Shown here: in pieces, positions 3,190 through 24,095 of the stretch
How the letters are laid out: each line of letters begins with the position of its first letter
Numbering within the stretch: the first letter of the stretch is position 1
Virus record (IMG/VR): IMGVR_UViG_2617270952_000006
Strand: one strand, 5' to 3'
Source: a virus
Lineage: Duplodnaviria; Heunggongvirae; Uroviricota; Caudoviricetes
Length of the DNA: 43,639 bases
Position numbers and translations under genes: made by a program
Notes under the pieces: generated by a model
The model's input: the letters and a program-made list of their open reading frames with translations, nothing else
What the model was told of the DNA's origin: nothing
Database searches by the model: none

Positions 3190-4347
3190 ATGCTCACCGT
3201 TAAGCAGATTGAAGCAGCAAAGCCGAAAGAAAAACCATACCGCCTACTCGATGGTAATGGCCTGTACCTTTATGTCCCTGTGTCAGGGAAAAAGGTATGG
3301 CAGCTTCGCTACAAGATTGACGGTAAGGAGAAAATCCTGACCGTAGGAAAATATCCGCTAATGACTTTGCAGGAGGCAAGAGATAAAGCATGGACCGCGA
3401 GGAAAGACATCTCGGTTGGCATCGATCCGGTAAAAGCGAAAAAGGCTTCGTCTAACAACAATTCCTTTAGTGCAATTTACAAGGAATGGTACGAACACAA
3501 GAAGCAAGTCTGGTCAGTAGGGTATGCGACTGAACTTGCAAAAATGTTTGATGACGACATTTTACCCATCATCGGCGGTCTTGAGATTCAGGATATTGAG
3601 CCGATGCAACTGCTGGAAGTAATCCGCAGATTTGAAGATCGCGGTGCAATGGAGCGAGCCAACAAAGCCCGCAGAAGATGCGGCGAGGTTTTCCGTTACG
3701 CTATTGTCACTGGTAGGGCTAAATATAACCCGGCACCTGACCTTGCAGACGCCATGAAAGGATACCGCAAGAAGAACTTCCCGTTTCTTCCTGCAGACCA
3801 GATCCCTGCATTCAACAAAGCACTGGCAACATTTTCAGGAAGCATCGTATCGCTCATTGCGACCAAAGTTTTACGCTACACAGCCCTAAGAACGAAAGAG
3901 CTTCGTTCCATGCAATGGAAGAACGTCGATTTTGAAAACAGGATTATCACTATCGACGCCAGTGTGATGAAGGGCCGCAAGATTCATGTTGTTCCTATGT
4001 CAGACCAGGTGGTTGAACTTCTCACTACGCTAAGCTCCATCACTAAACCAGTATCAGAGTTTGTTTTTGCCGGGCGCAACGATAAGAAGAAGCCAATCTG
4101 CGAGAACGCGGTATTGCTTGTTATCAAACAAATCGGCTATGAGGGTCTGGAAAGCGGTCACGGATTCAGGCATGAATTCAGCACAATTATGAACGAGCAC
4201 GAATGGCCTGCTGACGCTATTGAAGTGCAACTGGCACATGCCAACGGCGGATCTGTGCGTGGAATTTACAACCATGCTCAGTATCTCGATAAGCGCAGAG
4301 AAATGATGCAGTGGTGGGCGGACTGGCTTGATGAAAAGGGGGAGTGA
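3190..4347 (+). CDS. intS: Tyrosine integrase, P4 family (IntS-like)
   Basis: 385-aa product from ATG 3190 (ORF track extends to 3154 from GTG); N-terminal arm-binding domain and C-terminal catalytic region (..HGFRHEF..LAHANG..RGIYNHAQY); immediately downstream of argW as in E. coli K-12 KplE1/CPS-53. Confidence 0.9.
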   Translation: MLTVKQIEAAKPKEKPYRLLDGNGLYLYVPVSGKKVWQLRYKIDGKEKILTVGKYPLMTLQEARDKAWTARKDISVGIDPVKAKKASSNNNSFSAIYKEWYEHKKQVWSVGYATELAKMFDDDILPIIGGLEIQDIEPMQLLEVIRRFEDRGAMERANKARRRCGEVFRYAIVTGRAKYNPAPDLADAMKGYRKKNFPFLPADQIPAFNKALATFSGSIVSLIATKVLRYTALRTKELRSMQWKNVDFENRIITIDASVMKGRKIHVVPMSDQVVELLTTLSSITKPVSEFVFAGRNDKKKPICENAVLLVIKQIGYEGLESGHGFRHEFSTIMNEHEWPADAIEVQLAHANGGSVRGIYNHAQYLDKRREMMQWWADWLDEKGE

Positions 4348-4438
4348 CCAACCTTAACCACTATCGGATAGTACAAAGCTTTGCAATCCAGACAAGGCTT
4401 TGTTTTGTCTAAGTTTGGTCACATTAGATGTGAAATCT

Positions 4439-6451
4439 TCAAATCAGCCCATAAATAACATTATGCAAATGAAGAGAGCCTGCTTCACCGGAAACATCAA
4501 AATCAATCCTAACTTTGCTTGCTCCAGGAGGAACAATATCTATTAATGCGTAGAAATTCCATGTGGAGCCTGATGGAATTGTAAATGTTGCTTTTCCCTG
4601 AACAGAGTTCCCTTCTTTATCAAAAAACTCAATACCAGAGATTGTTGTCACTTGATTCTTAGCCCAAAAACCTAACTGGAAATATCGTCCTGGTGAGCAG
4701 TCTGAGCACTCCTGATAAAATTTTGCAGATGCTCCTATAGATGGTATTGCTACATACAAAGACCTGGAAAACATAATATCATTTGGAACATCAGAATCCG
4801 TTCCTGCTGTAACAACACCTGAACCAGTTTGTTGAAGGCTCCAGTTAGAGTAGTTTAAAAACTGTCCACTTCCATTTGATAGCGAATTTATGTATGGACT
4901 AACTATGTTCCCTTTATCCCACTGAGTTGTTATAAATCCAGATCGTGGATAGCATCCATATGACATTATTTTTTTACTATTACCTCCAACTACCTGTCTA
5001 GTTGCTGATCCTGTCGCCAAATCCATTTGGTCAAATAAAGGCAATGAGCAATTTGTTAATGAAAGTACTGAATCATCATTTACAACAAACGGAACTGAAC
5101 TATATCCAGAGGGAGTAAGTAGCGTTGTATCTTTAATGCTTATTCTTGTGCTTCCAGATGCAGAGAACGCCACAAAGCTTTGACCTGGCTGAAACTCAAT
5201 ATTTCCACTTGAGTAAACAACGGTTGCGTTATCTTCAATAAAAACAGTAGAATCAAAATAACCTTCTTTCTTACCTGCTGGCATAGAGCAACAGTTAAAA
5301 ATAAATTGACCATTTCTAATTGTCAATGGACCTCCATTATCAACAACCCAACAATTATTAAATGTCATTACCTCGCCTGAGTTTGATGGAGAATTAAATA
5401 TAATTGTGTTGTTTAGACATCTTGATATTGTTACTTTGTCAAATAAAATTCTATATGAATTATCAAGAAACTCAATTCCAGCAGATGATATGAATGAAGA
5501 ATTACTTATTCTTAACTCTGATAATTCACCAGTGCCAATACCTCCAAGTAAAATCTTTTTAGATCCTAGCATCTTAAAAGATATGCCATCTAAAATTGAT
5601 GTTGCATTTATTTCATCCCTATTATCATAAGAAATATTAGAGTTACTTAACCTAATTGCATAATCACCTGATATCCCATTAATCTCAGTTAAAACGCATT
5701 TATTCGATCCTCTTAACCCACCTTTCGCGAAATCAATATCAATTAAAGACGAGAATTCTCCACTACATGGAACAACGCAATCATAACCTAGAGAGTTTAT
5801 TTTATTAATAAATAATGCAATATCCCCAGCGCCGCTGTAACCAGCGTCATATACAGAAAACTCAAGGCTTGGGTTTATTCTCTTCCAATTTACACCGTTA
5901 CCTTCTAAAACCATTACGTTATCAACTGCAATTGACTTGTCTACAGCTACAACAAACCCACCACCAAGTTCGAGTCCGGATACGTATGATTTTAAATATA
6001 ATTTATCAGATATCGACATTCCTTGTATATCTTTAAGGGAGTTAGCGCTCTCTACCATTCCAATGTATTTGTATCCAATATTACTTGATAGTTTTATAGA
6101 TAACTGATCAGGATCATACTTCAGCACATTAGGAAAATAGAACTGCTGCGCACCGTACGCATCATAAACAGCCATAGAATGGCCTTGCACGGTTACGAAT
6201 TTGGCAATCTGTCCGTTATATACCGGGTAACCAGCAGCGTTAATGATGATTGGTTGCGATACAGGAACGTGAGAACCGTCTTCGTTCTCTACATAAACCT
6301 GAATCTGGTTTTCAGGATTTACCGGGTCAGTGTCAATTTTTCCGATATAAATTTTGCCATTGGCATTTGCTTTAAACGAGCGAGCTAAAGTAAATAACTG
6401 ACTTGGTTGTGAAACAACAACGTTGTATAATTGTTCTGGCATAATAAACAT
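4439..6451 (-). CDS. Tailspike protein: P22 gp9-like N-terminal head-binding domain fused to a distinct beta-helix receptor-binding/depolymerase domain
   Basis: N-terminal ~110 aa align with P22 tailspike (..NVVVS.P...F...[34 protein letters not shown]....P.IINAAG...YNGQ......VQGHSMA.YDA.G.Q......NVLKYDPDQ); remainder is N/S/G-rich repeat-like sequence typical of parallel beta-helix; visibly A+T-rich. Confidence 0.85.
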
Positions 6452-6965: not shown

Positions 6966-7032
6966 TGTCTGTCATTTAATTTGCTCCAGATGCAAGGAAT
7001 CGCCGCAGCATGGCTACGGTGAATTTTGGGCA

Positions 7033-7056
7033 TAAAAAAACCCAGCCGAAGCTGGG
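7033..7056 (-). terminator. Rho-independent terminator downstream of ant
   Basis: Hairpin cccagc-cgaa-gctggg with a 7-nt T-run on the minus strand immediately 3' of it. Confidence 0.5.
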
Positions 7057-7075
7057 TCGTTGCGTTGGTTATCTG

Positions 7076-8011
7076 TCAGTAGTTATGTACTGAAGGAGGT
7101 AATTCTTTATTCTTAAGTCTCATCCATGCGGAAAGATTCGTTGGTCCGTCTGGCTCATTAATATCAACATCTCGTGTGCGATTGATTAAAACGTCTCTCG
7201 CCATTCCGATAACATACGAGAACTCATGACCGTAGTCGTAGCATCTGCCTGAATAGTTCGATTGAATTTGTTTTAGCGCCGGATACAGTTCGCGGAATAA
7301 TGCCTGTGAGCGGTTGGCATAATCCCATAACCATACAAGGCTGTTTACTTCTTTTGCAGAAAGCTCGTTGGTTTTCTTCTCTTGTTTGCCAATGAACTCA
7401 CCTTCAAGTGGAACTCGAGCTGCAAGTGATAGTGCTTCGGTAAACTGCTCCTCACTGATTTCTTTGTATGAACATCCAAAATGGGATTTCAGTGACGACC
7501 ACATGGTGATCATCGCCTTAGCCTGTTTTTCCTTTGGCAGAGACTGACCGCGACTCATGACGAGTTGTTTAATGGCTTCCTGCTGTTCAGTGGTGATTTT
7601 ACCCGGCAACGCCTTTTTAGCTTTGCGCGGGTTAACTACATGGCCTTTAGTCCAGTAGTCATGCAGCACGCTAAAGCATTCCTCCTGGTACTGAATCAGT
7701 TTATCGCGGATGTCAGCACGAACTTTCTCAGGGTTGATGCTGAACAGCCATCCATTTAACTTCTTCAAAGGAAGGCAGAGTAGCTTACGAAGCTTTCCAT
7801 CAGCAGCAACCATATTCATATGAATACATTTGAACTTATCTAGTTGTTTCATAAGTTTTTGTTGCTGAGTACCCCAGCTCATTCCGAGGTTTTCAACGAT
7901 TGGCTTCATCGCAACATATGCAACTCCGGCAGCCATGGCGGTGATAATTTGCTGACCGTTGAATGGTACGTAAGAGGTGTTCACTGCTTCTAAAATTGCT
8001 ATACTATTCAT
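7076..8011 (-). CDS. ant: Antirepressor Ant (P22 immI-type)
   Basis: Large ORF immediately downstream of arc on the same strand; start taken at ATG 8011 ([17 protein letters not shown]..); ORF track extends to a GTG at 8077 that overlaps the upstream ORF. Confidence 0.7.
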
Positions 8012-8073
8012 GTTGGTTTTTCTCCACGGATTTACTGACAACCGAAGCCCTGACTGTTCCCGCAGTTGGGGCT

Positions 8074-8256
8074 TCACTGTTTTATGTTCACATCTAACAT
8101 TGTTTTTCTAGAATTTAACTCTTTCCCCATCGCTTCAACGCAAAGAGATACACAACTACTACAGATAAATATCTCTGCTTTAGCGCGAATCAACATTGCA
8201 CATTCATGCTGAGGCTTTCCGCAGAAGGAGCACTTAAAGCCATCTTCTTTATTCAT
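8074..8256 (-). CDS. 60-aa protein with ClpX-type C4 zinc-ribbon (ZBD-like) motif
   Basis: [43 protein letters not shown].. parallels the ClpX N-terminal zinc-binding domain (CSFCGK.QHE..LI......IC..CV.LC); start ATG overlaps arc stop (ATGA); preceded by GGGGGTGG RBS. Confidence 0.6.
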
Positions 8257-8405
8257 ATCGCCACCCCCTCTTTCTTCAGGCTGTCTATCAGGCGCTTGAT
8301 AACCTCTGAGTTAAACGACCTGCACTCTTCCTTTGCCCTGCTACCGATAGCATCCTTTAACGACTGCGGCATCCTTACCAAAATCTTACTTATTTCTTTC
8401 TCCAT
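8253..8405 (-). CDS. arc: Arc-like ribbon-helix-helix repressor
   Basis: 50-aa product [50 protein letters not shown]; RHH signature (..RSFNSE..) as in P22 Arc; GGAGGG RBS upstream of ATG 8405. Confidence 0.7.
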   Translation of the reverse strand: MEKEISKILVRMPQSLKDAIGSRAKEECRSFNSEVIKRLIDSLKKEGVAI

Positions 8406-8519
8406 GTTACCCTCCACACAAACAACTCTTTTCGAATACAAAAGATAGCAAAGTGAGTATATCTAGTCAAAATTTTTTTGCATACACTTTGATATCAAAT
8501 TGAATACCAAAGGTGTGTT
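8406..8519. promoter_or_regulatory. Divergent mnt/arc control region (Pant/Pmnt analog) containing a perfect 12-bp palindrome TTTGATATCAAA at 8488-8499
   Basis: Intergenic region between divergently oriented RHH repressor genes; palindrome seen directly; A+T-rich. Confidence 0.4.
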
Positions 8520-8768
8520 ATGGCAAAGGGTGTGTCAATTTCTCCAACTACGGTAAGAATCCCTGAATCTTTACGCGAGGCTCTTGCTGTTAGAGCATCA
8601 AAAAATGGTCGCTCTGTTAACTCCGAGATCGTCATGATTTTGCAAGCCGCGATTGATGAAGATAGGTCGCCAAAGTCAGTTGAGTCATTTGCTCAGCAAG
8701 AAGCTGACAAATTCAAAGAGGCGCTGCTGGAGACGCTGAAAACCATGTATGGTAAGGATGATAAATAA
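8520..8768 (+). CDS. mnt: Mnt-like ribbon-helix-helix repressor
   Basis: 82-aa product with N-terminal RHH (..RIPESLREALAVRASKNGRSVNSEIV..) and C-terminal helical region, divergent from arc as in P22 immI. Confidence 0.75.
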   Translation: MAKGVSISPTTVRIPESLREALAVRASKNGRSVNSEIVMILQAAIDEDRSPKSVESFAQQEADKFKEALLETLKTMYGKDDK

Positions 8769-9304
8769 TGCTGCACACAATTCATTTCTTATGCCCCGTT
8801 AACACCGCCACTGTTGGGCAACTTCAGAACCACTGTCTCACCGCATTATCTCAAGGCGCAACTGAATTAAATATCCATATATCAAGTCAGGGAGGGGAAA
8901 CTGCCGCTGGTTTTACTGCGTATAACTTTCTTAAGTCACTCCCTGTTACCGTTAGAACTCACAACATAAGCAATGTTGAATCCATAGCTAATATCGTTTT
9001 CCTGGCTGGCTCAGAACGTTTCGCAAACCCATTATCAAGATTCCTGTTACATCCTCTATTATGGGGCTTTGCCTCCCCAGCCGCCGACCATGCCAGACTG
9101 AGAGAGTACGGGAAATGCCTCGATAACGATCTTGATCGCTTCGTTGAGACGTTCAATATCGACATCGGAACCCATATTAGGTGGGCATCCCTGATAGCAG
9201 ACTCGACCATTTTGGATGCTAACAAGGCTCTTGAGCATGGCATAATTAATTCCATAAAAACTGCAAGGCTGGCATCCAATCAGGCAAACTGGTGGGTTGT
9301 TTGA
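8768..9304 (+). CDS. ClpP-family (peptidase S14-like) serine peptidase homolog
   Basis: By-eye alignment to E. coli ClpP: IHISSQGGETAAG vs INSPGGVITAG; NVESIANIVFLAGSERFANPLSRFLLHPL vs [31 protein letters not shown] (candidate Ser and His aligned); start ATG overlaps mnt stop (TAATG). Confidence 0.65.
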   Translation: MLHTIHFLCPVNTATVGQLQNHCLTALSQGATELNIHISSQGGETAAGFTAYNFLKSLPVTVRTHNISNVESIANIVFLAGSERFANPLSRFLLHPLLWGFASPAADHARLREYGKCLDNDLDRFVETFNIDIGTHIRWASLIADSTILDANKALEHGIINSIKTARLASNQANWWVV

Positions 9305-9360
9305 TGGGTAAATCATGATTACTCCTTATAAAAAACCCACCTGACGGTGGGGTTCATTTC

Positions 9361-9780
9361 TTAATCTTGCTTCGTGGAAGGTATAAGAGATGCATTTGCC
9401 TCTTTTGGCTTCAATGTATACATCCCACCATTAAATGGATCAACAGCAAGCCAACCAATTAACCCACCAAACACAAGGTTTCCACCAATATACCAACCAT
9501 TAGCATTGGCTTTGATTGGCAGGGTAACTGGTTCGTACCCATCCTTCTCCATAGTGATCTGGTAGCTCTTTTTGCCAAAATAGCTACCATCTGACTTGGC
9601 GAGTGTTACACCTTGTGGAGTCTTACCTTGCGCAACAATCACACCCGATTCATCTTTTACCTTAAAGCTCGCGCCAGAAGGATTGCTGTTCACTTGCACA
9701 AGTTGCGTTTCATCACCAACAATAGTTGCGCACCCAGATAACATGATAACGCCAGCAACGACGCTAATAATCCTCTTCAT
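9361..9780 (-). CDS. Lipoprotein with PEGA-like domain and C-terminal glycine-zipper hydrophobic segment
   Basis: Signal peptide with lipobox (MKRIISVVAGVIMLSGC); PEGA-like stretch (..VQVNSNPSGASFKV..GKTPQGVTL..DGYEP..); C-terminal ..WYIGGNLVFGGLIGWLAV..; A+T-rich. Confidence 0.55.
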   Translation of the reverse strand: MKRIISVVAGVIMLSGCATIVGDETQLVQVNSNPSGASFKVKDESGVIVAQGKTPQGVTLAKSDGSYFGKKSYQITMEKDGYEPVTLPIKANANGWYIGGNLVFGGLIGWLAVDPFNGGMYTLKPKEANASLIPSTKQD

Positions 9781-9897
9781 ATCAATTTCCATATTTAAAA
9801 AACCGGAAACATCCTAATGACAAAACATTCAAATGTGAAGTAGGCAAAAGATGTTTACTTTTTTCATGGTATCCTGCTCAAAACTAAGGAGGTTGGT

Positions 9898-10125
9898 GTG
9901 AAGCGATGGTTCCTCATAATTACTGTTTTCGCGATCATTTACACTATTTTCCCTGCATTAAAAGCACCAATGCAAATAATTTCACTAGCAATAATTTCGA
10001 TTGGTGCTTTCATTGCAGTAGCCGTACTTGTGTTTAAGGTTTTAAAGTTTTTAGTTTGGCTATCAAAAGATGATGGATGCAAAGTTCATCAAGAAAAAGA
10101 AGGCAAAATAACCAAAGTTGACTAA
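9898..10125 (+). CDS. Small predicted 2-TM membrane protein
   Basis: 75-aa product with two hydrophobic helices; GTG start 7 nt after AAGGAGG RBS. Confidence 0.45.
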   Translation: MKRWFLIITVFAIIYTIFPALKAPMQIISLAIISIGAFIAVAVLVFKVLKFLVWLSKDDGCKVHQEKEGKITKVD

Positions 10126-12245
10126 CTGTCACTAGCGAGCCATGTAATAATCCCCGTGCGGGCAATGGTTTTTGCTTCATCTGTTGATAAGGTTTTCTCC
10201 CATCTCTTAAATGCCCCAGATTGCATCAGTTTCCTTTCTATTGCGCGTCTCACTTCTGCTCTGTCTACTGGTGCGTTTTGCAGGCGAAATAGCATTGATT
10301 TAAACTCAGGAGAAGATAGCAGAGCATCAGCAGCCTTTATCCTGCTTGTTTTCCCTGACATCAATGCAGACGTTATCACCCCTGTTGCACCTACACCAGG
10401 GAGACCAGATAAGCTTGTAATACCTTCCGCCGCAGCAGCTTTTGAGGCTATTCCATAAATTTTTGCGAGACTACCCTTTTCTTTCAGAAAGTTATTAACT
10501 TGCTGATCCACAAGACTACTAGCATACTGCTTACCAGTATTGAGTCTATTCATAGCCTTAGCTGCTTGATAAATCGTATCAAGGCGCTTTGATGCATCTG
10601 TGCCAATAGCATCACGGAGAGCCTTCATATTGGCCCCATTGCGTGACATTCCGTTATACCATTTTACAAATCCATCAACTCCTAATTGCTGACCAGGTGA
10701 TTTGGCATAGCTGGTAAATGCTTTATTCATTGAGGTGAGCGCAACTTCCTGCCGCATATCCTTTGGAATCGACTTCATTAATTGCCTAAAGTCGCCACCG
10801 TTTCCTTTTGCCATATTAACAACAGCACTTTCAACTTTTGGAATTGCTGATTGCTGAAGTTTTCTACCCAAGACGGTTACAGCATCATCTTCAATGGATT
10901 TTCGTTTTTTTACCAACTCCTTACCAAGCGTCCATAATTCCCCTGCGCCATATTTTTCTGCGACAGCCTGTTGGTCATCTGTTATGGCTGCATATAACTT
11001 TTTAAGAACACCTGTTTCTTCATCCTTGAATGGACCAGAGCCTTTGCCAATAGCTTGTCCAACCTGCTTTCTAGCGAGATCTAAACGCCCATACGTTGGC
11101 AAGGTGTTTGGATCAAGTCGGTTCAATGTCCGCTTCATTATTGGAGATAATTCATCAATTCCACCTATGTCATCAGCAAAATCCTCTAAAAAATTCAATG
11201 TATTAGTTGCCTCAATCCGGTCTCTTACAGGAACCTTTTCGGCAATTTTGTTGTAGATGTTATCTGACTGATTTTGTAATGATGAAATGGTTTTATCAAA
11301 ATTATCTGCAAGCCTGTCAGAAACCAGTTGCTTATCAAGGCTTCCCCCAAATGAAGTTATCATTTCATCAGCTTTTCTTCCTAATTCAGTAATAAAACGC
11401 TTATGCGCCTCACTAATCTCTGTTCCAGGGAGACTTGCCACTGCATTATCAAGAGCCCTGACAGCAGGATTATTAGAGATCATGCCTGGAGTGGCATAAT
11501 TTTCCAGTTCTAGCTCACGAATAGCATTTATCGCGTTAAAATCAGGATTAACTTCATCGGCGAAATCTTGAATAGCTCGTTGCCCGCCGATAAATTTATT
11601 GTCCATTGCGCCAGCAGCTTTCTTTAACGTTGCTTTAGATGATTTACTACCCATCCCTACGGATGAGCGATAAATATCTCCGGCACTATTTTTAATTTTT
11701 CCTGCAATCTTCCCAAGCGCTGGACCAACAATCTCGGCTACAGGGCCAGCCACAGCGCCAATAGCAGCGCCGGAAGCAACATCGCTATTTGTTCCATTGG
11801 CTACAATAGCCCCTTCTCCAGCACCAAGCCCTGCGGCGGCAGCCAGCCTTGCCGCCCCTTTCGGAACCTGAGAAATAATCCCACCACCACTAACAAATGG
11901 CGCTGCTTGTCCAACGAACTCACCAACATCTTGTGCGGTTGATGGTTTTGCCGCTAACTTCTGCTGTAGAGACTGAATTGCGGCTTGCTCTTCTGGTGTC
12001 ATGTCCTGAAACAGGCCAACACCTTTACCAACATCCATCAATCCACTGAGAACGCCATACATAAAACGGTCGAAGCCGTTAGCATTATTAACAACATTTT
12101 CCTGTCTGGAATTTTCCTCTAGTGAAACCAAAGGAGATTGCTGCTGTTCTGGTTGTGCATCAAGCACAAAGCCATCAGGAAGCTGTGAGTTATCAGGCTG
12201 TTCATCCAGAACAAACCCCTCTGGTAAACCTACATTGGTTGCCAT
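10122..12245 (-). CDS. Ejection (E) protein, P22 gp16-like by position and size
   Basis: 707-aa ORF at the distal end of the virion gene block, following gp20-like and gp7-like genes in P22 order. Confidence 0.7.
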
Positions 12246-18372: not shown

Positions 18373-19644
18373 TTACGGATTACCGAAGAACTGACCGCCC
18401 ATGTGAGGGTTAAAGCACACATATGCAGGCAGTAAGTCGAAGCGCATTTTTTGCACGTTGGCATCGCCATCTGCGTATTTATGTACGCGGATGGAGAAAC
18501 CTTCATATGTTGCAACAGCAGAATCAATACTGTGCAGTTTCGGCAGTGGGATAGAGCCAAGTCCACAGAAGAACTTGTTATAGAACAGGTTTGGCTTCAT
18601 TGTCTGGCTAGCAGTGCCTACTACAGATACGGCATCGCCTGCCGCTACCTGACGACTTACAGAGTTGTACTGCGGGTTTGTAGTGTCATAAATCGGAACA
18701 CCAGAAAGCGTAACCGTCACATCGCCACTGCTGTCTGAATTAGCATCAGCAGTAACCGTTGCAGTGAAGCTAATTGGTGTGGCTCCGTTATACAACGCCT
18801 GTTTGGTCTGCTGTTGCAGCCAGTAGGTATTGGTGAATTTAACCTGATCACCAGCTTTCAGAAAACCTGTAACGCTGGCTGTCGCTCCGGTCAATGTTAC
18901 AGTGAACTGGTATGAGTCTTTAACTGCGTTATAGGTAACAGTTGGCTGTGTTTTGACTGTCAGTGTTCCGCCAAATGCCCCCTGCGTACGAGAGGCAAGC
19001 CCATTAGACATCAGTGCGCGAATGCCGCCAAAATTGGTTGGGATCTGCGCATTCTCCCATGCAGTACGAACCAATTGATCTGAAGCGTGCAAACCAGTCT
19101 GCGCATCAGCAAGTCGCTGTGCAGACCATGGATCCATTACAGCATAGTTTTCACCTTCATTAACGCCGAGATCTTTCAGGAAAGATGCCGTCTGCGCAAC
19201 ATCAGACCATTTGGTGATTGGAGTATTGGGGCTACCAAGTGACAACGCACCGTTATTCATCATGAAGTGAGCAAGCTCTGTTTCAAGGTCGGTAACGATT
19301 CGCTGGCGAACCGGCGCGAGAATTTCTTCCAGTTGGTTAAGCTTGATCGCTTCCTCCAGTTGCTGATATTCAACAGCAACAGTGATGTAGTTACCTACAC
19401 GCCCCGTTGCTTTACCTGAGTTCAGGTTGTTTTTATTTTGCCCTGAAATATCACCAGTGGGAGTACGGAGGGATGAGAATTGATGCGGACGTTTAAAGCT
19501 AACGCTATCGCCAGTGCTGGAGTTGATTTCACCTGCCAGCAACTGACGGTCTACGGTTTTCGCCAGAACTAAATCTGACATAAAACCAGGAAGGAATTTT
19601 TTCAGAACGATTTGACTGACGTTACTGTCGAGATTGTTAGGCAT
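18373..19644 (-). CDS. Major coat protein (P22/Sf6-type)
   Basis: 423-aa ORF in coat position after the scaffold gene; size matches Sf6-type coat proteins. Confidence 0.85.
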   Translation of the reverse strand: MPNNLDSNVSQIVLKKFLPGFMSDLVLAKTVDRQLLAGEINSSTGDSVSFKRPHQFSSLRTPTGDISGQNKNNLNSGKATGRVGNYITVAVEYQQLEEAIKLNQLEEILAPVRQRIVTDLETELAHFMMNNGALSLGSPNTPITKWSDVAQTASFLKDLGVNEGENYAVMDPWSAQRLADAQTGLHASDQLVRTAWENAQIPTNFGGIRALMSNGLASRTQGAFGGTLTVKTQPTVTYNAVKDSYQFTVTLTGATASVTGFLKAGDQVKFTNTYWLQQQTKQALYNGATPISFTATVTADANSDSSGDVTVTLSGVPIYDTTNPQYNSVSRQVAAGDAVSVVGTASQTMKPNLFYNKFFCGLGSIPLPKLHSIDSAVATYEGFSIRVHKYADGDANVQKMRFDLLPAYVCFNPHMGGQFFGNP

Positions 19645-19655
19645 TTATCTTTTCC

Positions 19656-20540
19656 TTATTCGATTTTTGCGCCGGGGCATAATTTGTTGAATTCGTCTTG
19701 TTTCGCATCAGCACCGCCACCACGTACTTCCGGCTCTGGCTTGATGGCTTTCTTTGGTTTTGGAGCAAGGCTTACCTGTTTGCTAATCTGCCCCAAGAGG
19801 AATGCTGCGCGAATTGGATCTGTCTCAGCGGCTACACGCTGGCGTAATTGCTGGCTCTTACCTAAGCCATAGGCGAGTAGTTCAGAGCCTTCGTCTGCAC
19901 AGTGAATGATGATTTCCTGCTGAATTGGTGGTAGCTCACTAAGAACAATGGCCTCCATTTCCTGATAATCTTTCACAGGAAGTTTGGCTGCCCGTTGTTT
20001 ATGCGCTTCTACCCTTTGCTGGAAACGCTGTTGGTATTCCTGTTGCTGACGTAGTTTTTGTTGCTGCTGCTGTTCGACACGGCCTTTTTTCTCATGCCAA
20101 TCAGTCAATGCCTGTTCAAACGCCTGTTCGTCATAATCACACGACTCAAGAGTCGGTTTTGGTGGAATAGCGTCTGGTTGTGGTTGCTGATGTTCCGCAG
20201 GCTTGGCTAATGCTTCCTCAAGCTGGCGGCGCAACTCACGGTTTTCTTTCTGTGTTTCTTTGAAGCCTTTGCGAAGATCTTTCACCCATTGCGGTGCAGG
20301 TTGCCCGTCAATGTGATCATCATCGTCAGCGTTAAGCTGAATTTCTTCATCACCAATACGCAAGGCGTAATCTTCTGGTGTCTCTTCGGTTTTTTCAGGC
20401 TCAGTTGCCACCTCTTTACCGTTGTCATCCTGGCTTTCATTCTCAGGCTGTGACTCTGTTTGGATGATGGTTTCTTCTGCATTTTCCTGTGTTTCAGACA
20501 GGCCAATAACCTGACCGTCGATGATCAGTTCGTTTTCCAT
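19656..20540 (-). CDS. Scaffolding protein
   Basis: 294-aa highly charged, Q/E-rich helical protein between portal and coat genes. Confidence 0.8.
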   Translation of the reverse strand: MENELIIDGQVIGLSETQENAEETIIQTESQPENESQDDNGKEVATEPEKTEETPEDYALRIGDEEIQLNADDDDHIDGQPAPQWVKDLRKGFKETQKENRELRRQLEEALAKPAEHQQPQPDAIPPKPTLESCDYDEQAFEQALTDWHEKKGRVEQQQQQKLRQQQEYQQRFQQRVEAHKQRAAKLPVKDYQEMEAIVLSELPPIQQEIIIHCADEGSELLAYGLGKSQQLRQRVAAETDPIRAAFLLGQISKQVSLAPKPKKAIKPEPEVRGGGADAKQDEFNKLCPGAKIE

Positions 20541-20553
20541 TGATTACTCCTAG

Positions 20554-22680
20554 TTAACTCGGCATTAAGTCTGCCGGAGACTGTGGTGGTGACTGGAATT
20601 GCTGTTGTTGTGACTCGGAGACATCTTTCAGAAGGCGTATTGCCTCCATCACTGCTTTGTCATCGATGTTTCTGGCTTGGGCCAGTTTATAGACAGTGTT
20701 TGCCTGACTCTCCATCGCATCCTGCTGGGCAGTAAATGCTTTGATTTGAGTTTGAGCAGTTTCGTTAGTTGCTTTTTGCGCTTCTGCCTGCGCTGCTACC
20801 ATTTGCGCCTGAGCGAGAACCATTTCAGGATTTGGCTGGCTTTGTGCTGCCATTTGCGCCTGTTGAACAATCTGCTGCTCTTTCTCATTGCGTGGTTTTG
20901 CAATACCAGATATCAGCAGTTGGTTTCGGTTGTACTCTTTGAAGTCATCAAGGCCTTCGCCATCGATATTGTCCAGAATAATACCCTGAATTGCCGGGCG
21001 CATTGGGTCTGTTGGAAGCATAGAGCTAAGGACATTTGTCAGTACAGAAACCGTTGCATCACGTCGTGCTGTGTAGCTTGGTCCAACATCAACCGTCACA
21101 TCGTATCGACCGACAGAAAGGTCATTTAACGCAACAACAGCCCCTGTTTGCCTGTCAACAACCTGTGCGCTCAGGACAGCGATATCATCACTTCCATCTT
21201 CGTTAACGATGCGCACTTCACGTTCTGAACCGTACACTTCACGCGCCATTGACAGCCATACTTCACCAGCGCGTTTAAGACTTTTCGCCATATTGTCCAG
21301 ATAGATAAACGAAGCCATATCTGCTCTGTTCATCAAGTTGTTAACCGTTTCCTGAGCAATATTACTTGGCATCTGCTGCATGGCCTGACTGCCGCCTGTA
21401 ACCTCCTGAATATCTGCACTGGTTTGCTGTAGTAATGCAGCCAATGCCTGATTCATAACCGCAGGCTGTGTATATCCTGCCGGGGTAGCTCCAGCGATAA
21501 TGTTGCCAGATTTATCTCTCACTTCGCGCAACGGCAAGAACGCTGGGCGTTTCTTGTTGCGAGCCTCCCAGTGCTTCTCAAGTCCACGAATTTGCTCCAT
21601 GCCAACTATAGGAATCTGACCGGGGTCTTGCGCTGCAGTATCAGCCAGCATTGAAACCTGAAGGTTGTACAAACGCTGTGGATCCATTGCTTTTGCAATG
21701 TGCCCTTCGACACGCTCAATGTCATCAATGAACCAGCGTTTTCCATAAACCGGGATGAGTGGGATATGCTCACCAGGAATACGTCGAGGGTTCTCAAGGA
21801 AACCATCACCATCCACTACGGATACATACACACGACGGCGCTTCACTGAGCGCCTTGCCACTTCATGAAATCCAGCTATTGCCAGTTCATCTTCAATATC
21901 TTCAACCTGATCACTGTCGTATGTTGCAATCTCTCCAGTGATTGGATGTCGATAACTGATGACGTCAACAGACTCTTTACGAACTTCGTAATACTTCGCT
22001 ATGTAAATAACATCTGCACCAAACCAGTTATATTCCCAACTGGTCATAGACGTTACATCCAGAGAAGTAGGAGGTTTCTTTCCGTATTCAGCCTCATATT
22101 TTTCAGGTGACAACGAATACATACAGAACGCCCACAACGCGTCAGATTTGTCGTACTTCTTAGCGTCAGGGTCAAACCACACAGAGCGCGACGGGTCGTA
22201 TATTGGTTCAATAGCAATACGCTGACGATCGTCCATGGGGTCGTATTCATTGACCAGCATCGACGTCAAACGGAAGCAACCGAAACCACCAGTAGCAGCG
22301 TCGTCAAATGCATTATCGCAAGCCTCACCGCCATCAGTTTCTTCGTAGTCAGCACGGAACAGACCATTTAATTTATTGGCTAACTCTTCGCTTGCCTCTC
22401 TGTCACCAGGACGAAACTTAACGGTTATTCTGTTATTGCGGTATTCTGCAATGATGCGGTTAAGTTCAGTTGCTACCTTATTGATTTCAAACTTAGGATA
22501 CTTCTCGAACTGCTCATCAAGCTTAGTTCCAGCCGCCGTTGCTCCTTCCCATTGACCTCCGGGGACACGAGCAAACCTCGTAGCTTCAATGCACTTTTCG
22601 CGCACTTCCTTCTGTGGAGAATAGGCGCGGTCAAACCTGAGCATGATCCGCTCATGTTTTTTCTCTAATGTCTCTGCCAT
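20554..22680 (-). CDS. Portal protein (P22 gp1 / Sf6 gp3-like)
   Basis: 708-aa product from ATG 22680 (MAETLEKKHERIMLRFD..), with conserved portal core (..VKRRRVY..GEHIP..PV.G) and Q/A-rich C-terminal barrel region. Confidence 0.9.
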   Translation of the reverse strand: MAETLEKKHERIMLRFDRAYSPQKEVREKCIEATRFARVPGGQWEGATAAGTKLDEQFEKYPKFEINKVATELNRIIAEYRNNRITVKFRPGDREASEELANKLNGLFRADYEETDGGEACDNAFDDAATGGFGCFRLTSMLVNEYDPMDDRQRIAIEPIYDPSRSVWFDPDAKKYDKSDALWAFCMYSLSPEKYEAEYGKKPPTSLDVTSMTSWEYNWFGADVIYIAKYYEVRKESVDVISYRHPITGEIATYDSDQVEDIEDELAIAGFHEVARRSVKRRRVYVSVVDGDGFLENPRRIPGEHIPLIPVYGKRWFIDDIERVEGHIAKAMDPQRLYNLQVSMLADTAAQDPGQIPIVGMEQIRGLEKHWEARNKKRPAFLPLREVRDKSGNIIAGATPAGYTQPAVMNQALAALLQQTSADIQEVTGGSQAMQQMPSNIAQETVNNLMNRADMASFIYLDNMAKSLKRAGEVWLSMAREVYGSEREVRIVNEDGSDDIAVLSAQVVDRQTGAVVALNDLSVGRYDVTVDVGPSYTARRDATVSVLTNVLSSMLPTDPMRPAIQGIILDNIDGEGLDDFKEYNRNQLLISGIAKPRNEKEQQIVQQAQMAAQSQPNPEMVLAQAQMVAAQAEAQKATNETAQTQIKAFTAQQDAMESQANTVYKLAQARNIDDKAVMEAIRLLKDVSESQQQQFQSPPQSPADLMPS

Positions 22681-22682
22681 GT

Positions 22683-24095
22683 TTACCAACCGGAGGATGA
22701 GGGAACGTATATTTCTGCTTCTTCGCGGACCAATGCCGGGCAATGCATACACATCATCAGCGCATCAGCCAGGTTAGGAGATGGAATACCGAGCTTCTGC
22801 TTCATTTCGACCTTAGTCATAAGCTCCAGCTTCCCGTTATTATTGAATTTGCGCTGAATCTGCGTCAGTTCTGCAAACAGCTTCTCCAGCATCTTCTCGC
22901 CTATCGCTTCTTTGTCGAAACTCAGCATGTCGTCTGGGTCTGCATACTCACCGTGGACAACCGCCCGATATGTCAGATACAGCCTGTCAGCCAGCGCGTA
23001 ATAGAATTGCGCTCGCTTATTGCGGAATACATCGCCAATAGTGCGAACGTTGTCGCCCTGCACGACTTCATCAGCCCATGCTCCGGCCTGATACGGCGCA
23101 TCTTCATCGAATGGCGATTCGCTGCCCTTGAACATCGTGGCGGTGATTTTCTTGCCGGAGAACGCTTCCGTTGTCTGTCTGCGTAGTCCGGCACCGACAC
23201 CATCACCATCCCACAGGTAGTGGTCAGCGCCGTCTTCAATCGCCAGCGAAGTAGCCCAGTCAGCGCCCTCGTTGATGTCCATCAGCAGACCTTCGGCAAT
23301 ACGCTTAACTACCGAACCGTGACGCGATGCGTAACCTTTAGCATCTGGACCTGTATCTGACGGGTCATGCGCAGAGACAACGGCGCCTTTCGCCTTCCAT
23401 CCGAGTTTCTTGTGCGCATCGGTTGCGGCTTCAAGCCATTCACGTTTGATAATTGCCATATCACTTGCGCTCACTGGCTCACCAAGCCAGATGTGACGAT
23501 ACAGTGTCGGGGTTCTGCGTTTACACTCTTCCATCTCCAGACGGAGGACTTCAGGAAAGTGCGGGTTGTCGGTGTAGTTCACTGTCAGCAGACAAATATC
23601 ATCGGGAGGATTTACAACGAATCGCTGATAGGTATCGTCGAGTATGTTCTTCGGGTTAAAGCTCACCCATATTTCAGAGAACGGCTTACGGATGGTTGGT
23701 ATCAGGATATCCCATGATTCCTTCGTTACCGCTTCCGCTTCTTCCACCCAGCAGATATCAATGCCTTCGAGCGATTTAATCTTCGTCGGGTTGTTTTTGA
23801 TGCCGTAGAACATGAATTCAGCATTCGTTCCGAGATGACGAATCATTGAACGCTGAATTTCAAACTCAGCCGAATACCCTTCCCGCTCGATGGTGTCTTC
23901 AAGCAACCGAATTACCGAATCGCTGATACTGTTTTGCAGTTCACGAGCGCAGAGTATGCGCACCGGCTGCCGACGCGCCGCTTCAACAAGCAGCCTCGCA
24001 ATTGCCCATGATTTACCGCTACCTCGACCGCCTTTGGCGACTTTGTAGCGATGCGCCTCAATGAACGGTTCAAAGATAGGATTAATCGAGGTCAT
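22683..24095 (-). CDS. Terminase large subunit
   Basis: 470-aa product with Walker A (..KGGRGSGKSWA..) and C-terminal nuclease region; start overlaps TerS stop. Confidence 0.9.
   Translation of the reverse strand: MTSINPIFEPFIEAHRYKVAKGGRGSGKSWAIARLLVEAARRQPVRILCARELQNSISDSVIRLLEDTIEREGYSAEFEIQRSMIRHLGTNAEFMFYGIKNNPTKIKSLEGIDICWVEEAEAVTKESWDILIPTIRKPFSEIWVSFNPKNILDDTYQRFVVNPPDDICLLTVNYTDNPHFPEVLRLEMEECKRRTPTLYRHIWLGEPVSASDMAIIKREWLEAATDAHKKLGWKAKGAVVSAHDPSDTGPDAKGYASRHGSVVKRIAEGLLMDINEGADWATSLAIEDGADHYLWDGDGVGAGLRRQTTEAFSGKKITATMFKGSESPFDEDAPYQAGAWADEVVQGDNVRTIGDVFRNKRAQFYYALADRLYLTYRAVVHGEYADPDDMLSFDKEAIGEKMLEKLFAELTQIQRKFNNNGKLELMTKVEMKQKLGIPSPNLADALMMCMHCPALVREEAEIYVPSSSGW

Follow-up and report, generated by a model that had tools for sequence, protein, structure and literature searches.

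The virus record IMGVR_UViG_2617270952_000006 of IMG/VR, a stretch of 43,639 nucleotides that we call the window, is the genome of a P22-like (Lederbergvirus-type) temperate phage, and it raises the question of what such a phage does with a ClpP-like peptidase gene that overlaps the stop codon of the mnt repressor gene in its immI (immunity I) region. A first-pass annotation, made from the letters alone, had described this gene as a 178-amino-acid (aa) open reading frame (ORF) directly after mnt, with a TAATG overlap, and had suggested exclusion, abortive infection or modulation of host proteases as its function; reading of the sequence, together with the Pfam Arc match of the upstream gene, bears out the arrangement. 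Our answer, offered tentatively and with slightly less than even confidence, is that the 178-aa protein is an accessory short ring subunit of the PpClpP1 type, made in lysogens, which would form hybrid complexes with host ClpP and so alter the output of ClpXP and ClpAP.

Profile searches and structure prediction identify the protein as a ClpP-family homolog with a predicted ClpP alpha/beta fold that includes the handle helix. It matched Pfam CLP_protease (PF00574) at an expect value (E) of 4.8e-12 and 46.6 bits, against a cut-off of 20.2, with residues 24-165 aligned to profile positions 37-180 of 182, and a search of the PDB returned 9uxt_A as the best solved relative, at E 2.8e-35 over the full length, followed by canonical ClpPs at E 1e-8 to 1e-4. 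An AlphaFold (AF2) model built from 24 relatives had a mean predicted local distance difference test (pLDDT) score of 82.8 and was weakest at residues 99-104 and in the handle region, the latter with pLDDT 51-76. In Foldseek comparisons the model matched 9uxt_A with a template-modelling (TM) score of 0.91 at 39% identity, and E. coli and other canonical ClpPs with TM scores of 0.74-0.81 at ~22% identity, so that the homology first seen by eye now stands on profile searches and on the predicted fold. Like canonical E. coli ClpP (MEROPS S14, PF00574), the protein has this fold, matches the family profile, and retains both the catalytic Ser and His and, in its handle helix, the HA+E motif.

The catalytic residues are only partly those of the canonical enzyme. 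The candidate Ser and His named at first pass are Ser72 and His95, whose aligned counterparts in E. coli ClpP are Ser97 and His122; the two are invariant in 24 family members, and among 136 distant representatives the Ser and the His were each kept in 134. The Asp of a full triad did not survive inspection. Its position, Asp171 in E. coli, is occupied by Ser146, varies among S, A, T, P and G across the family (S, A or T in close relatives) and among G, A, R, P and S in the distant representatives, where Asp is not among the common residues; the adjoining Asp145 is not conserved. The 178-aa protein thus has no Ser-His-Asp triad and, because only the first two positions are invariant and the third varies, what is conserved for catalysis is best described as a Ser-His pair.

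A further departure from canonical ClpP concerns the elements that dock the ATPase partners. The 178-aa protein starts ~24 residues into mature E. coli ClpP and has no axial loops, as had been proposed from the sequence at the outset. This short start is a family trait, with every member beginning M-[LI]-H-T-[IV] and with a median overhang before the first strand of 6.5 residues in the 136 distant representatives versus 40 in the E. coli precursor. At eight E. coli positions that we take to line the pocket for the IGF loop (IGF/LGF pocket) and for acyldepsipeptides (ADEP), six are replaced by polar residues (Y60N, Y62H, F82S, I90H, L114N and L189K), which leaves M92I and F112F as the only two kept; the alignment to the E. 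coli sequence agrees with the PDB matches. Because the axial loops and most hydrophobic pocket residues are gone, the protein is predicted to be unable to recruit ClpX or ClpA itself, that is, to be a partner-blind ClpP subunit that cannot dock the usual ATPases. Its gene, moreover, does not lie beside clpX.

The best solved relative provides a biochemical parallel. Structure 9UXT shows PpClpP1, a divergent ClpP from Pseudomonas plecoglossicida that is truncated at its N-terminus and carries the residues Ser73-His96-Pro151, the third of which is dispensable for activity (PMC12900304). It forms a homo-tetradecamer with an axial pore of 42.7 A, has a peptidase activity ~13-fold below that of its canonical paralog, and alone neither binds ClpX nor degrades fluorescein isothiocyanate (FITC)-casein or GFP-ssrA, yet with canonical ClpP it makes a stable hetero-tetradecamer that binds ClpX and is slightly more active; its authors likened it to PaClpP2 (PMC12900304). 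Full-length similarity to 9UXT, a truncated N-terminus, a retained Ser and His with a third residue other than Asp, an IGF pocket that is not conserved, and a length of 178 versus 183 aa place the window protein among short ClpPs of the PpClpP1 type. The two differ at the third position (Pro151 versus Ser146), at the C-terminus, and in their genomic setting, the PpClpP1 clade being chromosomal beside KGG and DUF6555 stress genes whereas the clade of the 178-aa protein is phage-borne and, in the window, coupled to mnt. At the C-terminus the phage-borne clade conserves an [NR]-W-W-V motif (residues 174-178; NWWV in the window), which the model predicts as a terminal beta-strand, whereas the Pseudomonas relatives of PpClpP1 have endings of the QWSVHA type.

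Mixed rings have precedents among bacterial ClpPs. ClpP2 of P. aeruginosa, ClpP1 of Listeria and ClpP1P2 of Mycobacterium are secondary isoforms that have little or no activity by themselves and function only within mixed tetradecamers, where they stack on a canonical ring through which the ATPases make contact. All of these are host chromosomal paralogs, whereas the ClpP of the window comes from a phage, and its partner ring would be encoded by another genome. Since the 178-aa protein should be incapable of engaging ClpX or ClpA, and since PpClpP1 is inert on proteins alone yet assembles with canonical ClpP, a hybrid tetradecamer is the best supported arrangement. We propose that the phage subunit, catalytically competent by its Ser-His pair, would form a heptamer that stacks on, or mixes with, a heptamer of canonical host ClpP; the hybrid tetradecamer would be driven by ClpX or ClpA through the host ring, with an altered proteolytic output, and turnover that depends on ClpXP and ClpAP would be retuned in the lysogen. 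Co-assembly with host ClpP, judged by analogy, seems to us possible rather than probable. By the same analogy, modulation of host proteases appears to be the one of the three functions suggested at first pass that gains indirect support from PpClpP1.

Several points weigh against a lysogen-made hybrid ring. The biochemistry comes from PpClpP1 alone, which is only 39% identical to the 178-aa protein, and the boost that its hybrid gave to ClpX-driven degradation was slight (PMC12900304). The PpClpP1 clade is chromosomal, beside KGG stress genes, and function may have diverged between the clades. Most relatives are not linked to mnt, and Pmnt, the promoter from which the gene would be transcribed, was itself missed by our simple promoter scan.

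The same features could be read in other ways. Having no N-terminal gate, the 178-aa protein might work by itself as an open-pore homo-tetradecamer, an ATPase-independent peptidase of the lysogen that could attack ejection or early proteins of a superinfecting phage and thereby cause exclusion or abortive infection; this would suit the 42.7 A pore and measurable peptidase activity of the PpClpP1 homo-14-mer (PMC12900304), as well as the location of the gene in the slot that P22 uses for sieA, where the other cargo looks surface- or defence-related. However, PpClpP1 alone degraded neither FITC-casein nor GFP-ssrA and had the much lower peptidase activity given above, the 178-aa protein matched 0 families of PADLOC-DB 2.0 at E<=1, and defence literature on the gene was not found, leaving the earlier suggestion of exclusion or abortive infection without support; we consider a stand-alone peptidase unlikely. 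The protein could also be a decoy or poison subunit on host ClpP, blocking ClpX or ClpA docking on one face or lowering activity, and so stabilising repressors, replication proteins or antitoxins. Its lost docking loops and pocket and the low intrinsic activity of PpClpP1 are consistent with such a role, and the same immI region encodes a possible competitor, a protein consisting of a ClpX zinc finger only, but the invariant Ser and His and the purifying selection on the gene would be needless in a pure decoy, and the PpClpP1 hybrid complex raised activity instead of lowering it. A decoy therefore seems decidedly unlikely.

The timing of expression can be approached through the arrangement of immI, which in the window lies between the tailspike gene and gene 16 and has the P22-like build of ant(-), arc(-) and mnt(+). 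The P22 order is 9(-) ant(-) arc(-) mnt(+) ORF59(+) sieA(+) 16(-), and the window keeps this frame with the ClpP-like gene downstream of mnt, which agrees with the earlier remark that it stands where P22 has sieA. Although sieA has the same slot and orientation (downstream of mnt, before gene 16), it has no sequence relationship to the ClpP-like gene; SieA is annotated as a superinfection exclusion protein and sits in the inner membrane, whereas the window protein is predicted to be a soluble ClpP-fold protein. The cargo of this slot on the flank of immI varies among related phages. In P22, Mnt is made in lysogens and keeps ant off. In the window, the TAA of mnt and the ATG of the ClpP-like gene have one base in common, an AAGGA lies 9 nucleotides upstream of the ATG, and a simple promoter scan found no promoter-like site between mnt and the ClpP-like ORF. 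A hairpin downstream of the ORF is likely a two-way terminator and the right edge of a conserved cassette. Given the TAATG coupling, the single terminator after the ORF and the absence of a promoter-like site in between, the ClpP-like protein should be made together with Mnt, from Pmnt and hence in lysogens. Taking the biology of P22 immI together with the gene arrangement, we regard expression in lysogens as probable.

The junction with mnt is constant among close copies. All 35 of the 35 copies with at least 94% identity lie behind an mnt-type gene with the same TAATG junction, and the coupling persists although the preceding mnt belongs to at least four divergent alleles, whose products matched the window Mnt in phmmer at E 1e-48, 5e-28, 1e-18 and 1e-14, with ClpP-like genes 97-99% identical. 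The left joint of the conserved block falls upstream of arc (~8245-8263) or in the 3' end of mnt (~8676-8687 and ~8730), and its right end at ~9326-9368, at the hairpin; these limits indicate that the unit exchanged among phages is the 3' end of mnt plus the ClpP-like gene plus the terminator. So constant a coupling might point to a protease specific to immI, which would degrade Ant, Arc or Mnt and sharpen the antirepressor switch. Yet Mnt alleles swap freely before an unchanged ClpP-like gene, ~50 relatives of 50-80% identity occur in phages in which they have no Arc, Mnt or Ant neighbour, and the 178-aa protein appears to have no means to recognise or unfold substrates, all of which makes this explanation very improbable. 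With the majority of phage-borne relatives lacking any link to mnt, a function restricted to the immI switch is improbable. As separate observations, loci L036 (4219-5053) and L037 (2017-2567) carry two or three tandem mnt-like ribbon-helix-helix (RHH) genes, of different alleles, before the ClpP-like gene.

The distribution of the gene among phages is that of a "moron": it is patchy among related phages, occupies various slots, and has a separate orientation and its own terminator. Copies 98% identical to it are found in six deposited phages, the P22-like phiv205-1, EC.P3 and E212 and the lambda-like siphoviruses PhiR12_1, PhiR12_4 and PhiR12_5, against 238 phage records that have DNA in common with window positions 7000-10200, mostly the ant part. 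In the three PhiR12 phages the entire ant-arc-mnt-clpP-like module lies among the tail genes, with L on one side and K on the other, and its occurrence in a lambda-type tail region implies that the immI module is transferred as a whole between podovirus and siphovirus genomes. The module was seen between lambda-type tail genes K and L in L002 (PhiR12_1, 3525-5537), L020, L023-L025, L027, L029-L031, L033 and L039. Relatives of 50-80% identity occupy two kinds of slot, one bounded by Rz-type spanin or endolysin genes and the small terminase subunit gene, the other by a tape-measure gene and further tail genes. When the nearest ORFs of at least 100 aa on either side were compared across 53 loci of such relatives, the downstream one ran on the opposite strand in 48 and both did so in 33. 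Disrupted copies, namely a split ORF in L044 (1403-1938) and an insertion carrying a 326-aa ORF in L047 (4147-5882), indicate that the ClpP-like gene is dispensable, while pairwise ratios of nonsynonymous to synonymous substitution (dN/dS) of 0.08-0.3 indicate purifying selection. It is a selected but dispensable accessory gene and neither a structural gene nor a component of immI; a structural or morphogenetic role, which had been set up as the alternative at first pass, fails on the patchy presence, the interrupted copies and the slots outside the head module.

One structural role deserves separate mention, that of a head maturation (prohead) protease, because it is what some databases imply. 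The best PHROG match of the 178-aa protein is phrog_94, "head maturation protease" (E 1.5e-21), NF045542 is matched at E 4e-13, and the GenBank record of phiv205-1 (MN340231) labels the gene "head maturation protease"; such proteases have a distant ClpP-core homology in common with the 178-aa protein. The NF045542 score, however, is 49.6 bits against a cut-off of 120. Head maturation proteases sit co-oriented between portal and capsid genes, whereas the window gene, at 8768(+), lies between mnt and the ejection-protein gene 16, outside the head module and in the reverse orientation to it; the head genes occupy 18373-24095(-) as an unbroken row that, like the one of P22, leaves no slot for a protease, in keeping with the first-pass view that P22-like phages use no such enzyme. 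The same gene also stands amid tail genes of lambda-like phages and is interrupted in some prophage-derived viral contigs. On position, strand, sub-threshold score and the P22-type head module we rejected a head protease as extremely improbable.

Beyond the close copies, the profile search covered 1.84 billion representative proteins and returned 59 clusters at E<=1e-30 and 2,157 at E<=1e-10, the top 150 being mostly 180-195 aa long; judged by these matches, the 178-aa protein belongs to a large, old subfamily of short Ser-His ClpPs, in which no characterised member other than PpClpP1 was found. A scan of IMG/VR found relatives encoded on 115 viral contigs, of which 80 were kept for analysis, and a species-representative genome collection held only six loci. 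The ClpP-like gene was present in 128 of 5,426 complete E. coli genomes (2.4%), always on the chromosome, and there PGAP labels it "ATP-dependent Clp protease proteolytic subunit", beside an "Arc family DNA-binding protein". The enterobacterial family is phage-borne, a widespread prophage accessory gene. The Pseudomonas clade, with 213 matches of a uniform 183 aa, sits in unremarkable chromosomal surroundings, where genes for KGG stress proteins and DUF6555 proteins adjoin it, suggesting a part in stress response, a point absent from the PpClpP1 paper. In the Pseudomonas chromosomes L093-L098, relatives 65-89% identical to PpClpP1 always have genes for small KGG-repeat stress proteins and for a DUF6555 protein as neighbours. 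The idea that PpClpP1 is itself a prophage gene was rejected, as its Pseudomonas relatives are chromosomal and the scan of viral contigs gave only relatives of at most 50% identity.

The short ClpP protein type has been known since 2026 and databases recognise its domain, but they mislabel this gene as a housekeeping ClpP subunit or a head protease. We found no report on the mnt-linked ClpP-like gene in the literature, including the DefensePredictor paper, nor any description there of the phage-borne clade, the mnt coupling, the moron-like distribution or the database mislabelling; likewise, no account was found of a ClpP subunit that a phage encodes and that adjusts the host protease within a lysogen. 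The present comparison places PpClpP1 in a wider family with a phage-borne branch and gives a concrete hypothesis of mixed rings with host ClpP. Many decisions that concern temperate phages, among them the turnover of replication proteins, the stability of antitoxins, the level of RpoS and the SOS response, are controlled by ClpXP and ClpAP, and if the hypothesis is true, temperate enterobacterial phages supply their own ClpP ring and make a hybrid phage-host protease.

The window also holds a second ORF related to the Clp machinery. On the other side of mnt, within the divergent operon that starts with arc, a 60-aa ORF encodes a ClpX-type C4 zinc-binding domain alone; it matches the ClpX zinc-binding domain structures PDB 1ovx and 2ds5 at E 1e-7 and keeps four of four Cys. 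Free ClpX zinc-binding domain competes in vitro for SspB and for substrates such as lambda O, and the phage-made domain, expressed from Pant, could act as a ClpX decoy that competes for adaptors or substrates. The ORF occurs, among the compared loci, in the window and L010 only, and no close homolog of its product was found in deposited phages. An obligatory pairing with the ClpP-like gene was rejected, since the slot elsewhere holds unrelated small ORFs (F27, F31) without a Pfam match; a functional link between the two is only a possibility. It is conceivable, though rather unlikely, that immI toggles between two manipulations of ClpXP, a hybrid phage-host protease in lysogeny and the free zinc-binding domain during infection or derepression. 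The features of the locus are collected in Table 1.

Table 1. Features of the immI region and of the reference genes in the window
Feature	Position	Strand	Evidence or remark
Tailspike gene	4439-6451		
ant antirepressor gene	7076..8077	-	phrog_245, E 2.4e-98
60-aa ORF, ClpX-type C4 zinc-binding domain alone	8074..8256	-	Overlaps arc and ant; Pfam zf-C4_ClpX, E 4.1e-11, 43 bits against a cut-off of 27
arc-like repressor gene	8253..8441	-	First of the divergent arc-zinc finger-ant operon; Pfam Arc, E 2.5e-12
Pant-like promoter, arc-mnt intergenic	8442..8470	-	TTGACT-17-TATCTT over an Arc-operator-like sequence
mnt-like RHH repressor gene, 82 aa	8520..8768	+	First of a two-gene unit; Pfam Arc, E 9.6e-11; phrog_2685; P22 layout
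Conserved mobile block (mnt 3' end, ClpP-like gene, terminator)	8676..9351	+	97-99% identity across phages
Coupling junction TAATG	8754..8770	+	AAGGA Shine-Dalgarno 8754-8758; mnt TAA 8766-8768; ClpP-like ATG 8768-8770
Short ClpP-like serine peptidase gene, 178 aa	8768..9304	+	ATG start, stop included; ORF read, Pfam, PDB, AlphaFold
GC-rich hairpin between the converging ClpP-like and lipoprotein genes	9336..9351	.	CCCACC-TGAC-GGTGGG; terminator-like on both strands in the scan
Lipoprotein gene, 143 aa	9361..9792	-	phrog_6823; weak PEGA domain; Cor-like signal peptide
Membrane protein gene, 75 aa	9898..10125	+	phrog_7294
Gene-16-type DNA transfer protein gene	10122-12245	-	
Terminase, portal, scaffold and coat genes	~24095 to 18373	-	Contiguous; then head-completion and ejection-protein genes

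The lipoprotein and 75-aa membrane protein genes occupy the slot between mnt and gene 16, and in related loci their presence is independent of the ClpP-like gene. Apart from weak noise, PADLOC matched none of Mnt, the zinc-finger protein and the products of these two genes. A conserved upstream partner was sought for the lone relatives and rejected, as none is general and a 182-aa ORF of phrog_5483 is confined to one group. This group comprises the lambdoid prophages L069-L076, where the ORF lies on the same strand ~80 bases upstream (7374-7922 + in L069) and has a sub-threshold match to Pfam Abi_2 (E 0.04); it may be either a partner or a further cargo gene. In L001 (4590-5084, minus strand) and similar loci of the phiv205-1 type, a convergent ORF of 139-164 aa lies downstream, assigned to phrog_8366 and with a weak PADLOC match to NsnC (E 5.9e-6).

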